This document shows, in pieces, positions 34,960-37,995 of a stretch of 64,000 nt of DNA. The first letter of the stretch is position 1; each line of letters begins with the position of its first letter. The notes under the pieces are model-generated. The model searched no databases. It was not told the origin of the DNA and worked only from the letters and a program-made list of their open reading frames with translations. The position numbers and the translations under genes were made by a program. The stretch covers positions 22,444 to 86,443 of the forward strand of contig CANRFQ010000001.1 of NCBI GenBank assembly GCA_947629935.1, written 5' to 3'. Source of the DNA: an uncultured Bacilli bacterium. Lineage in GTDB: Bacteria; Bacillota_I; Bacilli_A; RF39; UBA660.

Positions 34960-36273
34960 CTAAATTTTATTAAATTTATTACTCTTTCTTGCGTAGATAT
35001 ATGCACTAGCAGCACCAACTAATAAAGTACCAATTAACGCATATGAAGCAACACCATATTTATTGTTTGTTTCGCCTGCACCAGGTTCCGAAGTATCAAC
35101 TGTACATACGTCGCCAGTCCCTTCGTATGTTAATGTTACCATTGTTGGAAAACGATAATAATAATATGTATCTGTTATTGATTCAACATAATCTTCATAT
35201 TTTCCATCTTGATAATTTGCAACATCAATTTCTTGTGGTTGACCTTGCCATAGCATACTATCTAATTTATCTTCATAGCTAGATAAATCTCCATAATCTC
35301 TTCTTAATGATATTGCCACATTAGAATATGTATCGTCACCAACATTCTCAAAAGCAGTATTTTCATCTGGAACAGCTGTTTTAGAATTATCATTGACATC
35401 AATTGAAGCTTTCATCCATGCATCAATAACTTTTTGAACCTCTGAACTGTCAATAGTTTCACCATTGCTTGCCCATTCAGCAAACATTCCCATATTACCA
35501 GTTGTATCACTATCACGCCAATCAGTAGGACCATCTAAATAATGATTATTATCAGATTCCGTTTCTATATTTTCCCAACTATTATGGATAAAATAATAAT
35601 CTTCATCATTTGATAATACGGCATTTTCTTCTGTAATAGATTCATCGCCATTCTTTTTTACTTTTAAAGCATTTATATACATATCAGTAAAAGTATACCA
35701 ATCGTCTTTAGACCAATTACTATAATCTATGCTTTTTAATTTATAACCTTCTGGGATAGTATTATTATAAAATGAAGCTGTACTAGTCATAGTAAGATTT
35801 GTACTTGGAGCAATTGATGTTGCCCCATCAAGCCAATCTGTAAAATGATCTAGAGTATCTATCTTACCACCAAAGCCAGCCTGGTCTTTATCATCTGTAT
35901 TATAAGCCACTGTGGCACCTGATATTTCCAAATCAGCAGCAGATTCACCAATTTGAATTTGCTTATTGTCTCCCATTTTATCATTTGCATCAAAACCAAA
36001 ATGACTAACATATTGGCTTGTATATTGACGATCAGTAAAAGTATCTTCATCACCTAAGAGATCAGAATTACTTCCTAATTCTTTTCCTTCGCTAGTTAAT
36101 TTAAAAACGCTATCAATATAAGCTGTTTCCTCTTCAATAAAAAAATAATGATTTCTTATTTGACACGTATCATCATCCGCTGCTTTAACAATTGGTAACA
36201 TTGGACTAACTGCTAAAGCCATTGCTAATAAAATTACACTAACCTTTTTTCCATGTTTTTTCAGCATTTTCAT
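34960..36273 (-). CDS. Secreted, highly acidic (Asp/Glu-rich) cell-surface protein with an N-terminal signal peptide and a C-terminal hydrophobic anchor plus basic tail, but no canonical LPXTG
   Basis: Signal peptide MKMLKKHGKKVSVILLAMALAVSPMLPIVKA. The C-terminus is ...SEPGAGETNNKYGVASYALIGTLLVGAASAYIYARKSNKFNKI. RBS AGGAGAGG. Divergently adjacent to the sortase B gene. Confidence 0.6.
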   Translation of the reverse strand: MKMLKKHGKKVSVILLAMALAVSPMLPIVKAADDDTCQIRNHYFFIEEETAYIDSVFKLTSEGKELGSNSDLLGDEDTFTDRQYTSQYVSHFGFDANDKMGDNKQIQIGESAADLEISGATVAYNTDDKDQAGFGGKIDTLDHFTDWLDGATSIAPSTNLTMTSTASFYNNTIPEGYKLKSIDYSNWSKDDWYTFTDMYINALKVKKNGDESITEENAVLSNDEDYYFIHNSWENIETESDNNHYLDGPTDWRDSDTTGNMGMFAEWASNGETIDSSEVQKVIDAWMKASIDVNDNSKTAVPDENTAFENVGDDTYSNVAISLRRDYGDLSSYEDKLDSMLWQGQPQEIDVANYQDGKYEDYVESITDTYYYYRFPTMVTLTYEGTGDVCTVDTSEPGAGETNNKYGVASYALIGTLLVGAASAYIYARKSNKFNKI

Positions 36274-36432
36274 ATATTAATCCTCTCCTATATTCTATTT
36301 TTATTATAAACCAATCATCCGACATTATGCAACAATAAAATACATTCTTATAAAAAAAATGTCGAAAATTGTAAATATGTTTAAATTTAATTTAAATTGT
36401 GCTATTATCTAATAGTAGGAAGGTTGGTTAAA

Positions 36433-37995
36433 GTGAAAGTAATAAAAATTCAAACATATAAAAAAGCTTTAATCTTTTCTTTTAAAGAACAAGAAAAGTT
36501 AGATACTGACCTAACTATGATAACAACTAAAATAGATTTAGAAGAATTAGTTTTTTCTTTTAAATATATTTTAAAAAATAAAAAATTGGTTATAAAGTTT
36601 TTAAGTGATATTATCAATAAAAAAAATGTTAATCAATTAACTATTACAGATTATGACTTATTTGATTTAGCTCTAGATTTAGTCAAAAATTTACCAAAAA
36701 TTACTATCTTAGAAATACGCGATAAAACTGTATTAAAATATGAAGATTGTCTCAAAATATTAAAGCTAAAGCAATTAAATAAATTAAAATGTTTTAGTCT
36801 TCCTCTTTTTATGTTAGAAAAATTTGATAAAAATAATTTAGATGTTAATTTATATAGTGAAGAATTTTATTTAAGCAATTTTATGTTAGATAACAAATTT
36901 AATAATTATGCTGATATTTATTACGCTAAATCAATTATTATTAATCAGGAAATGAATGATGATGATATTAATGATTTAAAAACTTTTTTACTAATAAATA
37001 AATATTTAACCGTTATCTACTTATATTATTATAAAAAAGAATTAGTCCAAAAATTAATAACTATTTTAGATGATGTTAATGTTAAAAAAATTAAATTTAA
37101 AATATATCAGCAAGATAAAGATAATAACGCTTTAGAAGAATTAGCTAAATATATTAATAAAAGCAAAGTTAAAAAACTAAGTTATTCCTTTCAAGTAATT
37201 TATTCGAAAGAATATATAAATCGAAACTTTATGAAACAACTTTCCTTTAATAATTTAAAAATGTGTGCCATTATTATGATTATTACTTTAATGGCGGGAT
37301 TAGGTTTTAAAATTTATTATGATTTAAAATCCAAAAATGATGTGGAAGATGTTTACGATATGGTTAATTTAATAAATGATGTTGACACTTCCCCTTCCCA
37401 AGAGCAAAAAAAAGATGAAGGAGCTCAAAAAGAAGTTATTGAAGCTCTAACTGAAGATTTTGATAAATTATTATCTATTAATAGTGATACTGTTGGTTGG
37501 ATTAAAGTTAATAATACCAATGTTAATTATCCTGTTGTCCAAACTGATAATAATACTTATTATCTAGATCGTAATTTTTATAAAAAGAAAAATTTTAATG
37601 GTTGGGTTTATATGGATTATCGTAATAGTATAGATGATATTAATGATAATACTATCATATATGGTCACAACGGCACTATGTTTGGAACTTTAAAAAATGC
37701 TTTAAAAGAAAAATGGTATAAAAACGAAGCAAACCAAATCATTTCCTTTAATACTTTGCATGCTCAATTACGTTATAAAATTTTTGCAATTTACGTAACA
37801 ACACCCGACTTTGATTATCTAATTAATAATTATGTCTATCCGCAAAATTATACAAAATTCATTGAAGAAATCAAATCCCGCAGCATTTATGATTTTGGTG
37901 TTGATGTAACAAACCAAGACAAAATACTAACTTTAACAACCTGTGCAGACCAACAAGGAACAACCCGAATTGTAATTCATGCTAAATTAATATAA
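36433..37995 (+). CDS. srtB: Class B sortase with a ~290-aa N-terminal cytoplasmic extension (leucine-rich-repeat-like), one TM, then the catalytic domain; GTG start inferred (the ORF track begins at 36397)
   Basis: C-terminal domain: GWIKVNNTNVNYPVVQTDNNTYYLDRNF..., a catalytic His in IIYGHNG, LTLTTCA (Cys) and an Arg in TTRIVIHA. TM MCAIIMIITLMAGLGFKIYY at residue ~290. The N-terminal region has repeated LxxLxLxxL units. Confidence 0.75.
   Translation: MKVIKIQTYKKALIFSFKEQEKLDTDLTMITTKIDLEELVFSFKYILKNKKLVIKFLSDIINKKNVNQLTITDYDLFDLALDLVKNLPKITILEIRDKTVLKYEDCLKILKLKQLNKLKCFSLPLFMLEKFDKNNLDVNLYSEEFYLSNFMLDNKFNNYADIYYAKSIIINQEMNDDDINDLKTFLLINKYLTVIYLYYYKKELVQKLITILDDVNVKKIKFKIYQQDKDNNALEELAKYINKSKVKKLSYSFQVIYSKEYINRNFMKQLSFNNLKMCAIIMIITLMAGLGFKIYYDLKSKNDVEDVYDMVNLINDVDTSPSQEQKKDEGAQKEVIEALTEDFDKLLSINSDTVGWIKVNNTNVNYPVVQTDNNTYYLDRNFYKKKNFNGWVYMDYRNSIDDINDNTIIYGHNGTMFGTLKNALKEKWYKNEANQIISFNTLHAQLRYKIFAIYVTTPDFDYLINNYVYPQNYTKFIEEIKSRSIYDFGVDVTNQDKILTLTTCADQQGTTRIVIHAKLI

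Follow-up and report, generated by a model that had tools for sequence, protein, structure and literature searches.

What would a sortase gain from a long domain on the cytoplasmic side of the membrane, and from a single protein encoded back to back with it? Sortases are textbook examples of minimal enzymes, composed of a membrane anchor and an extracellular catalytic domain, with a specificity that is attributed to a five-residue motif. The locus that raises the question occupies positions 34960-37995 of a 64,000-nucleotide (nt) stretch of contig CANRFQ010000001.1 (assembly GCA_947629935.1) of an uncultured Bacilli bacterium. The whole stretch is referred to as the window; its DNA has a G+C content of 24-34%, and its closest relatives are metagenome-assembled genomes from rabbit gut, likewise named "uncultured Bacilli bacterium". 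Two divergent open reading frames (ORFs) fill the locus, one encoding a class B sortase (SrtB) with a long N-terminal domain, the other a putative substrate. The main finding reported here is the family of long SrtB enzymes to which this sortase belongs, together with its N-terminal domain; the decayed sorting motif of the neighbouring protein is regarded as an informative natural mutant. The features of the sortase gene, with amino acids (aa) counted from the start codon at 36433, are as follows:

36433-37995, plus strand: long class B sortase gene, 520 aa plus stop, GTG start, above the cutoff of model TIGR03064
36433-37248, plus strand: N-terminal domain (N-domain), aa 1-272, predicted to be cytoplasmic and to consist of a β-hairpin and eight to nine β/α repeat units, matching no known family
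37255-37323, plus strand: single transmembrane signal-anchor helix, aa ~275-297, LKMCAIIMIITLMAGLGFKIYY, as delineated by a Kyte-Doolittle scan
37324-37452, plus strand: variable acidic linker, aa 298-340, predicted to be extracellular and, according to alignments, of differing length across the family
37453-37992, plus strand: SrtB catalytic domain, aa 341-520, with His412 at 37666-37668, Cys504 at 37942-37944, and Arg512 at 37966-37968

Judged by its sequence and catalytic residues, the enzyme is unambiguously of class B, albeit without the usual short N-terminal anchor. The catalytic part scores 172.9 bits against TIGR03064 ("class B sortase"; cutoff, 153.75 bits) and 54 bits against the Pfam Sortase model PF04203 (E = 1.7e-14; cutoff, 26.6 bits), and its best solved relatives in a phmmer search of the PDB are the SrtB enzymes of Bacillus anthracis (1.3e-37), Staphylococcus aureus (1.4e-36), and Clostridioides difficile (1.2e-34). 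His412, Cys504, and Arg512 align to the B. anthracis enzyme and are located in the motifs IYGHNG, LTLTTC, and TTRIVIHA, respectively; together with GWIKVNNTNVNYPVVQ, these are the motifs from which the original prediction, made on the sequence alone, had rightly read a complete SrtB domain at the C-terminus. The catalytic His, Cys, and Arg are kept in 252-256 of 258 members of the long SrtB family. In the subclade of the window, the ratio of nonsynonymous to synonymous substitution rates (dN/dS) of the catalytic domain is 0.02-0.06, which indicates very strong purifying selection.

The length of the N-terminal extension depends on the start codon. The program-listed ORF opens at the TTG at 36397 and would encode 532 aa. 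Ahead of the GTG at 36433, the sequence AGGAAGG is found at 36417-36423, an arrangement that is identical in five out of five orthologous loci. The GTG with a ribosome-binding site (RBS) of AGGAAGG or GGAAAGG ahead of it is shared by six out of six orthologues, and distant members of the family have a Met at the aligned position. GTG 36433 is therefore taken as the true start, giving a protein of 520 aa, and the extension of some 290 residues that had been proposed ahead of the single membrane helix is retained at ~272 residues. The same prediction had considered that translation might in truth begin at an internal Met just before the helix. This is excluded by the dN/dS of the N-domain, which lies at 0.09-0.26 among orthologues and thus points to purifying selection, and by the Met residues near the helix, which are not conserved. 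An internal start or an annotation artefact is more generally ruled out by the conserved GTG and RBS, the low dN/dS, the large size of the family, and the lack of a conserved internal Met. From base composition (~0.085 stops per random codon), the chance of a 284-codon open frame in DNA of 27% G+C is calculated at ~1e-11. Full-length orthologues of the sortase share 66-96% identity, and purifying selection is seen on all parts.

Only one hydrophobic segment is detected in the sortase by the Kyte-Doolittle scan (aa ~275-297, peak at aa 277), flanked by basic residues on its N-terminal and by acidic residues on its C-terminal side. Because there is no signal peptide, the membrane is crossed once, and the sortase domain must face the wall, topology rules imply that the first ~272 aa must be cytoplasmic. 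The sortase would then be a type-II membrane protein, with a cytoplasmic β/α-repeat domain, one transmembrane helix, and the SrtB domain directed towards the wall.

A comparative search for SrtB homologues with long N-termini, one of the checks suggested for the locus, uncovered a large family. When 1.84 billion representative sequences were searched exhaustively by phmmer with the 284-aa N-domain alone, 130 clusters were matched at E ≤ 1e-3, most matches having a length of 507-565 aa; a profile search added 120 further members of 536-584 aa, so that the family spans 507-584 aa overall. The succession of N-domain, transmembrane helix, variable linker, and SrtB domain is present in 26/26 sequences that were read. 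A metagenome scan by full-length alignment gave 80 loci, nearly all of which were matched across almost the whole query, and a hidden Markov model (HMM) of the N-domain found one match per locus, never standing alone and always fused to SrtB. The hosts are uncultured Bacilli of gut, rumen, or digester; where the source is evident from the record of a locus, it is human gut (a Hadza sample in the case of locus L008). By these searches, the window sortase is one member of a large, hitherto undescribed family of long SrtB enzymes. In annotation the family is invisible, every member being labelled as a class B sortase; the only source names are "class B sortase [Bacilli bacterium]", "class B sortase [Mollicutes bacterium]", and "sortase B". 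No description of sortases with a cytoplasmic domain or an N-terminal extension was found in Pfam, NCBIfam, or the searchable literature, the coverage of which is incomplete, so that this is a weak negative. In L008 (8456-11276, minus strand), a conventional short sortase and a SpaA-type pilin gene are located directly downstream of the long SrtB gene, from which it follows that long SrtB can coexist with other sortase systems.

As to the nature of the N-domain, the proposed Pfam and NCBIfam scans returned no family, the Pfam scan covering 17 family members at E ≤ 1, and PDB sequences gave no match, the top PDB profile match being ZYG11B at E = 0.42; on these empty searches, identity with a known domain was rejected. 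An AlphaFold2 model computed from an alignment of 17 diverse members is confident (predicted local distance difference test [pLDDT], 84.5; predicted template modelling score [pTM], 0.70). It consists of an N-terminal β-hairpin, a low-confidence loop at aa 22-33, and eight to nine short-strand/helix units, the last helix of which continues into the transmembrane segment. The leucine-rich-repeat (LRR)-like periodicity that had been noticed in this region is thus reflected in the modelled β-α units, while kinship with LRR proteins did not emerge: no LRR model is among the Pfam matches of the 17 N-domains at E ≤ 1, and similarities to LRR proteins, namely those of the ribonuclease-inhibitor/F-box type (NLRC4, NLRP3, SKP2, and the Legionella LRR protein 4Q62) and ZYG11B, are weak. 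"LRR-like" would at best describe the predicted β/α repeat, LRR homology being unestablished. The loop at aa 22-33, which has the lowest confidence in the model (pLDDT < 50), carries one of the most conserved motifs of the family, LNNTNxI, from which the window clade has diverged to DLTMITTKI. Since it is conserved yet unstructured in the model, this loop may serve in binding. With a mean net charge of +5.5 (window, +11), the N-domain is basic, and D181 and K268 are the only charged residues among its positions of at least 75% conservation.

The second gene of the locus is separated from the sortase gene by a spacer of 159 base pairs (bp). Its features are the following:

34960-36273, minus strand: cognate substrate gene, 437 aa, with signal peptide, acidic ectodomain of unknown fold, and C-terminal sorting signal
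36178-36273, minus strand: signal peptide, aa 1-31/32, with predicted cleavage near the junction of VKA and A, as read from the sequence (MKMLKKHGKKVSVILLAMALAVSPMLPIVKA followed by A)
35074-35088, minus strand: EPGAG, aa 396-400, an alignment-based candidate for a relocated cleavage site; clade motif EPG[AS]G, then E
35053-35067, minus strand: NNKYG, aa 403-407, positional homologue of NPxTG, with Pro replaced by Asn and the scissile Thr by Tyr
34963-35052, minus strand: hydrophobic helix, aa 408-428 (VASYALIGTLLVGAASAYIYA), and basic tail RKSNKFNKI, aa 429-437, from an alignment of 21 homologues

An exported, very acidic protein with a signal peptide, a C-terminal hydrophobic segment, and a Lys/Arg tail had been predicted here, and the protein is of precisely this make-up. 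The signal peptide has a basic n-region, a hydrophobic h-region, and the VKA-A junction, and the substrate residues H7, G8, K9, K10, S12, V13, P24, and A31 do not vary among 21 homologues; Asp and Glu account for 17.4% of the residues versus 7.8% for Lys and Arg; the C-terminus reads ...SEPGAGETNNKYG-VASYALIGTLLVGAASAYIYA-RKSNKFNKI. A corresponding substrate gene was found in 44 of the 70 judgeable loci, i.e., those with enough upstream sequence, and is directly divergent in 43 of them, with spacers of 25-226 nt in nearly all cases. Of the 26 apparent exceptions, two can be accounted for, L010 by three inserted genes, as in L091, and L001 by a deletion. In a neighbour-joining tree built from the sortases, the remaining loci without an adjacent substrate group in essentially a single clade, from which it is deduced that the divergent pairing is ancestral to the long SrtB family. 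On this comparative evidence, the window neighbour is the cognate substrate of the long SrtB.

The recognition of substrates across loci was based on an HMM of the sorting signal, built from 34 C-termini of 42 aa of family substrates. With it, exactly one ORF per locus was matched (E between 7e-10 and 1e-22); among the window ORFs of at least 60 aa, the neighbour was matched at 1.7e-12 and no other. In family substrates, a signal peptide is followed by a body that varies and by a C-terminus of xPxTG, a helix of the type [SA]F[AV]SYA[IV]LAAG..., and a tail of the type AKK[NH]NK[FL][YQ][KR][IV]. Their ectodomains fall into at least 13 clusters without BLAST relationship; as the C-terminal 44 aa are homologous, it is the sorting signal that is conserved and not the cargo. 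Among the 21 homologues of the window substrate, nearly every residue of helix and tail is invariant, whereas the ectodomains are only 25-50% identical. Family-wide, the tail holds 2.4-3.9 bits of information per position as compared with 2.2-2.3 bits for N and P of the pentapeptide, and its consensus is [AST][KR]Kx[NT]K[FLIM]x[KRQ][IV]-COOH (in short, KKxNK[FL]x[KR][IV]). Against the generic anchor models, family C-termini score 15.6-18.3 bits (TIGR01167; cutoff, 15.9) and 14-20 bits (NF033846; cutoff, 23.5), and the window C-terminus is matched by TIGR01167 only over helix and tail (model positions 11-34; 12.5 bits; E = 0.19).

Several individual substrates are of interest in their own right. 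In one sub-lineage (L091:1111-4907 and L010:3492-4889), the three genes inserted between sortase and substrate encode a 465-aa protein of unknown function, a carbamoyltransferase, and a DUF5989 protein, and the substrate gene is still divergent. In L001 (4603-5841, minus strand), the closest relative of the window with a 96% identical sortase, as well as in P0255, a deletion of ~150 bp removes the whole sorting signal from EPGAGE through the tail; in L001 it joins the substrate ORF to the terminator region. This variant is present on two contigs; it is either a naturally secreted form or an assembly artefact. Exactly two Cys residues occur in the window substrate: the one at aa 37 follows closely on the signal peptide, and C390, which is invariant, precedes the pentapeptide by 13 residues. 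A Cys at a distance of 5-20 residues ahead of the sorting motif is likewise found in many unrelated substrates of the family. The two Cys residues may form a disulfide or other covalent lock joining the ends of the ectodomain.

Neither NPxTG nor LPxTG is present in the window substrate. When the window substrate is aligned with its homologues, NNKYG falls into the columns in which these have NPDTG, NPNTG, NPGTG, NPATG, NPKTG, NEKTG, or NPDSG, and a MAFFT alignment of the family C-termini places it likewise. The homologues with a canonical motif share the signal peptide and the almost invariant helix and tail of the window substrate. N403 and G407 are invariant in 21/21 aligned homologues. At the residue preceding the scissile bond (P1), Thr is found in 31 of 33 non-redundant family signals, the exceptions being the window and L003. 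Deviation is confined to the window subclade, with NSDTG in L004 (the outgroup by sortase identity), NQNLG in L005, NQKYG in L003, and NNKYG itself in the window, P0254, P0257, and P0262. Since close homologues carry NPxTG in the same columns, NNKYG represents a decayed NPxTG rather than a different signal, and judged from the alignment this decay is recent. The prediction of a non-canonical sorting signal is thus correct as to the wording of the motif and is not so as to its kind, which in homologues is canonical.

Seven residues upstream of the motif, EPG[AS]GE is found in all seven deviating sequences (window, P0254, P0257, P0258, P0262, P0267, and P0277), these being the ones without the Pro of the motif and, for the most part, without its Thr as well; EPG[AS]G is absent as such from the 14 homologues keeping NPxTG, NEKTG, or NPDSG; in P0270, P0272, and P0276, EPGD precedes an intact NPDTG. 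EPG[AS]GE may be a relocated site of the x-P-x-small-G type, or it may simply be a marker of the clade. An exosortase/PEP-CTERM-like interpretation of "EPG" was dropped, there being no exosortase gene and the neighbouring enzyme being a sortase. On the enzyme side, the sortases of the deviating subclade have Thr two positions ahead of the catalytic Cys, where Ser is usual (S502T). Co-evolution of the active site with the loss of the P1 Thr was rejected as an explanation, because S502T also occurs in 14 other members, K511T is common, and phylogeny confounds the comparison. Sortases cut between Thr and Gly. In a model of C. difficile SrtB, the hydroxyl group of the P1 Thr bonds to the catalytic Arg (PMC5118464), so that Tyr or Leu at P1 would be unprecedented.

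The elements found between and behind the two genes are:

36274-36432, between the genes: divergent promoter region, based on consensus matches only, with blocks conserved among five orthologous spacers
36327-36332 and 36303-36308, minus strand: promoter-like elements of the substrate gene, -35 TTGCAT (reverse complement of the former positions), 18 nt, and -10 TATAAT (reverse complement of the latter), with RBS GGAGAGGA
36400-36408 and 36417-36423, plus strand: promoter-like extended -10 TGcTATTAT and RBS AGGAAGG of the sortase gene
34927-34955, minus strand: terminator-like hairpin after the substrate gene, common to the convergent sigK
37997-38026, minus strand: terminator-like hairpin between the sortase stop and the convergent S1-domain gene

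The conserved promoter-like elements of both genes resemble those of sigma-A. The pair is located between sigK and the S1-domain gene, which is followed by nifU-like and yutH-like genes. Pfam and NCBIfam matches identified the DUF2651, sigK, S1-domain, and yutH-like neighbours, while argS and nifU were assigned from synteny with L089/L090. This gene order around the pair is kept in L005, L089, and L090 and not in distant family members. As sigK adjacency is limited to the window clade and the promoters are sigma-A-like, a sporulation-specific role is unsupported, and none is read into the pair. NEAT-domain or haem-uptake genes were found neither in the window neighbourhood nor in any listed locus.

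Concerning the surroundings, a DUF2651-like membrane protein with a poly-Lys C-terminus is encoded at 33560-34189 (minus strand) and a yutH-like putative spore-coat kinase at 38636-39568 (minus strand; TIGR02905, 104 bits, below the cutoff of 215). The sigK, yutH-like, and DUF2651-like genes, together with CotJB/CotJC in L092, point to an endospore-forming low-G+C Bacilli lineage. The window sigK is uninterrupted (TIGR02846, 306.7 bits). Its orthologue in L089 (6306-10050; window counterpart, 34234-34929) is split into a region-4 part (6306-6665) and a region-2 part (9691-10050) by a skin-like intervening element of ~3 kb with a large serine recombinase (Resolvase/Recombinase/Zn_ribbon_recom). 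L005 contains, just upstream of its sigK gene, an ORF of 372 aa (2092-3210, minus strand) that resembles reverse transcriptases of the group II intron or retron type, includes a YMDD motif, and has no counterpart in the window.

The question of what the extra domain does can be approached by a mechanism in which the two genes form a dedicated cassette for cell-surface display, consisting of the long SrtB and its divergent client. The signal peptide would direct export of the client, which would then be retained in the membrane through its C-terminal helix and basic tail; family-wide, if SrtB chemistry applies, it would be cut after the Thr of xPxTG and transferred to peptidoglycan. The N-domain would be a protein-interaction module that reads the conserved tail of the client and/or pairs with the client helix to helix. 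This proposal derives from the tail being as conserved as, or more conserved than, N and P of the pentapeptide, and from the N-domain being the only family-specific cytoplasmic element. Tail and helix would thereby contribute to the choice of client, and the extracellular pentapeptide would carry less weight in it; this would account for the looseness of the family pentapeptide and would let the window subclade drift from NPxTG to NSDTG, NQNLG, and NNKYG with helix and tail staying invariant. Recognition or positioning of the substrate precursor by the N-domain from the cytoplasmic side is the reading preferred here, albeit tentatively and with considerable doubt. Its furthest version, namely that the long SrtB selects its single client via the cytoplasmic tail and that the pentapeptide has become partly dispensable, so that Thr could change to Tyr or Leu or the site could hop to the bond between [AS] and G of EPG[AS]G, is quite improbable.

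Several observations weigh against cytoplasmic recognition. The N-domain is net basic like the tail, so that simple charge complementarity between the two, which had been considered as its basis, is absent. Tail and sortase both track phylogeny, so that their co-conservation could be mere co-inheritance. About a third of the loci, belonging to one clade, lack an adjacent substrate, and in L001/P0255 the sorting signal is deleted beside an intact sortase, which means that the sortase may have other clients. Furthermore, we know of no precedent for Tyr or Leu at the scissile position in characterized sortase substrates, and hence the window substrate may not be cleaved at all.

Some of these points would be accommodated if the N-domain were a localization or scaffold module unrelated to substrate recognition, by which anchoring would be confined to defined sites through a tether to the divisome or elongasome, to Sec/YidC, or to forespore complexes, the tail being kept for other reasons such as membrane retention kinetics. 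The predicted β/α repeat fold is of a kind common in protein-protein interaction, with its weak LRR likeness; the N-domain is kept in the clade without adjacent substrate, and the sortase stays intact where its partner has lost the sorting signal; sigK, the yutH-like gene, and CotJB/CotJC in L092 provide a spore-former context. However, no partner was identified, gene order beyond the pair varies within the family, the promoters look sigma-A-like and not sporulation-specific, and the conserved tail of the substrate would be left unexplained. A scaffold role is rather unlikely. A cytoplasmic sensor or regulator, as the original prediction had envisaged, that switches the transpeptidase in response to an intracellular ligand or to the remnant of the cleaved sorting signal is very improbable: although the conserved low-confidence loop with LNNTNxI could bind a ligand or peptide, and streptococcal membrane circuits are known to sense cleaved sorting-signal peptides, the Pfam and NCBIfam scans gave no similarity to known sensor domains (PAS, GAF, HAMP, cNMP, PilZ, and the like), few conserved polar residues are available for a pocket, with D181 and K268 as the only charged ones, and no mechanism is known by which a single helix could relay a signal to a sortase domain.

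Compatible with either tail recognition or a scaffold role is that the neighbour in the window subclade is not processed at NNKYG, because cleavage has moved to the bond between [AS] and G of EPG[AS]G, seven residues upstream, or because the protein is left uncleaved, anchored in the membrane by its C-terminus and retained by the sortase or in a complex with it. That EPG[AS]G accompanies the degenerate motif in seven of seven homologues and is absent as such from the other 14 is in line with this, as are the x-P-x-small-G shape of the sequence, the occurrence of Ser at P1 elsewhere in the family (NPDSG, NVPSG), the coexistence of Tyr, Leu, and Thr at P1 among close relatives, which looks like relaxed constraint, and the restriction of the TIGR01167 match to helix and tail. 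On the other hand, the invariance of N403 and G407 argues for continuing constraint, the association amounts to a single phylogenetic event, EPGD ahead of intact NPDTG indicates that "EPG" predates the decay, and the low dN/dS of the catalytic domain holds within the very subclade. A loss or relocation of cleavage is unlikely.

Returning to the preferred reading, long SrtB departs from the textbook enzyme in having a cytoplasmic domain of ~270 residues, a one-to-one client, and a client tail that is as conserved as the cleavage motif. These three departures together suggest an undescribed extra layer of recognition, positioning, or control. The window lineage is a natural mutant in which the Thr-Gly site has changed with all else constant, and sortases with changed or relaxed P1 requirements are sought for protein ligation. 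If cytoplasmic reading of the tail were true, this would be the first sortase with two-sided, trans-membrane substrate recognition; if cleavage occurred at the decayed motif, it would provide the first natural sortase substrate cut after a residue other than Thr, Ser, or Ala.

Among known systems, the usual class B sortase has ~220-250 aa with a short cytoplasmic stub. B. anthracis SrtB (PDB 1RZ2/2OQW; substrate IsdC, NPKTG), an enzyme of ~250 aa with a short N-terminal anchor that is encoded in a haem-uptake (isd) locus, is the top match of the catalytic domain and shares with it the His/Cys/Arg triad and the pattern TLSTC...R.V.HA; substrates of the long SrtB family, too, often have NPKTG or NPxTG. 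In contrast to it, the enzyme described here has a 272-aa cytoplasmic domain and no NEAT or isd genes nearby, and the motif in the window is NNKYG. Listeria monocytogenes SrtB, the substrates of which carry NAKTN and NPKSS, is a more distant match (PDB 5JCV; 7.9e-29). It offers a precedent for deviation at P4 and at P1 (Ser for Thr), resembling the NPDSG and NVPSG variants of the long SrtB family, but none for a P1 residue as bulky as Tyr or Leu, nor does it have a cytoplasmic domain. Seen from the substrate, family signals lie near the threshold of the TIGR01167 "LPXTG_anchor" model and just below that of NF033846 "Rumino_NPXTG", and the window fits only the helix and tail part of the former; the KKxNKFxK[IV] tail is, to our knowledge, not a feature of generic LPXTG anchors. 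The SrtC type of B. anthracis is of class D and linked to sporulation, whereas the present enzyme is of class B by TIGR03064 and its promoters are sigma-A-like. C. difficile SrtB (PDB 4UX7; (S/P)PxTG) is not linked to haem uptake and is proposed to be possibly a housekeeping sortase and to cut between Thr and Gly (PMC8225981; PMC5118464). It is a close match of the catalytic domain, and SPKTG, PPETG, and PPHTG occur among the substrates of the long SrtB family. It differs in being the single sortase of its cell, serving several dispersed substrates without any large cytoplasmic domain, while here one enzyme with an extra domain is combined with one adjacent client with a conserved tail. By analogy, long SrtB would work most like such non-Isd class B sortases, of which C. 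difficile SrtB is an example.

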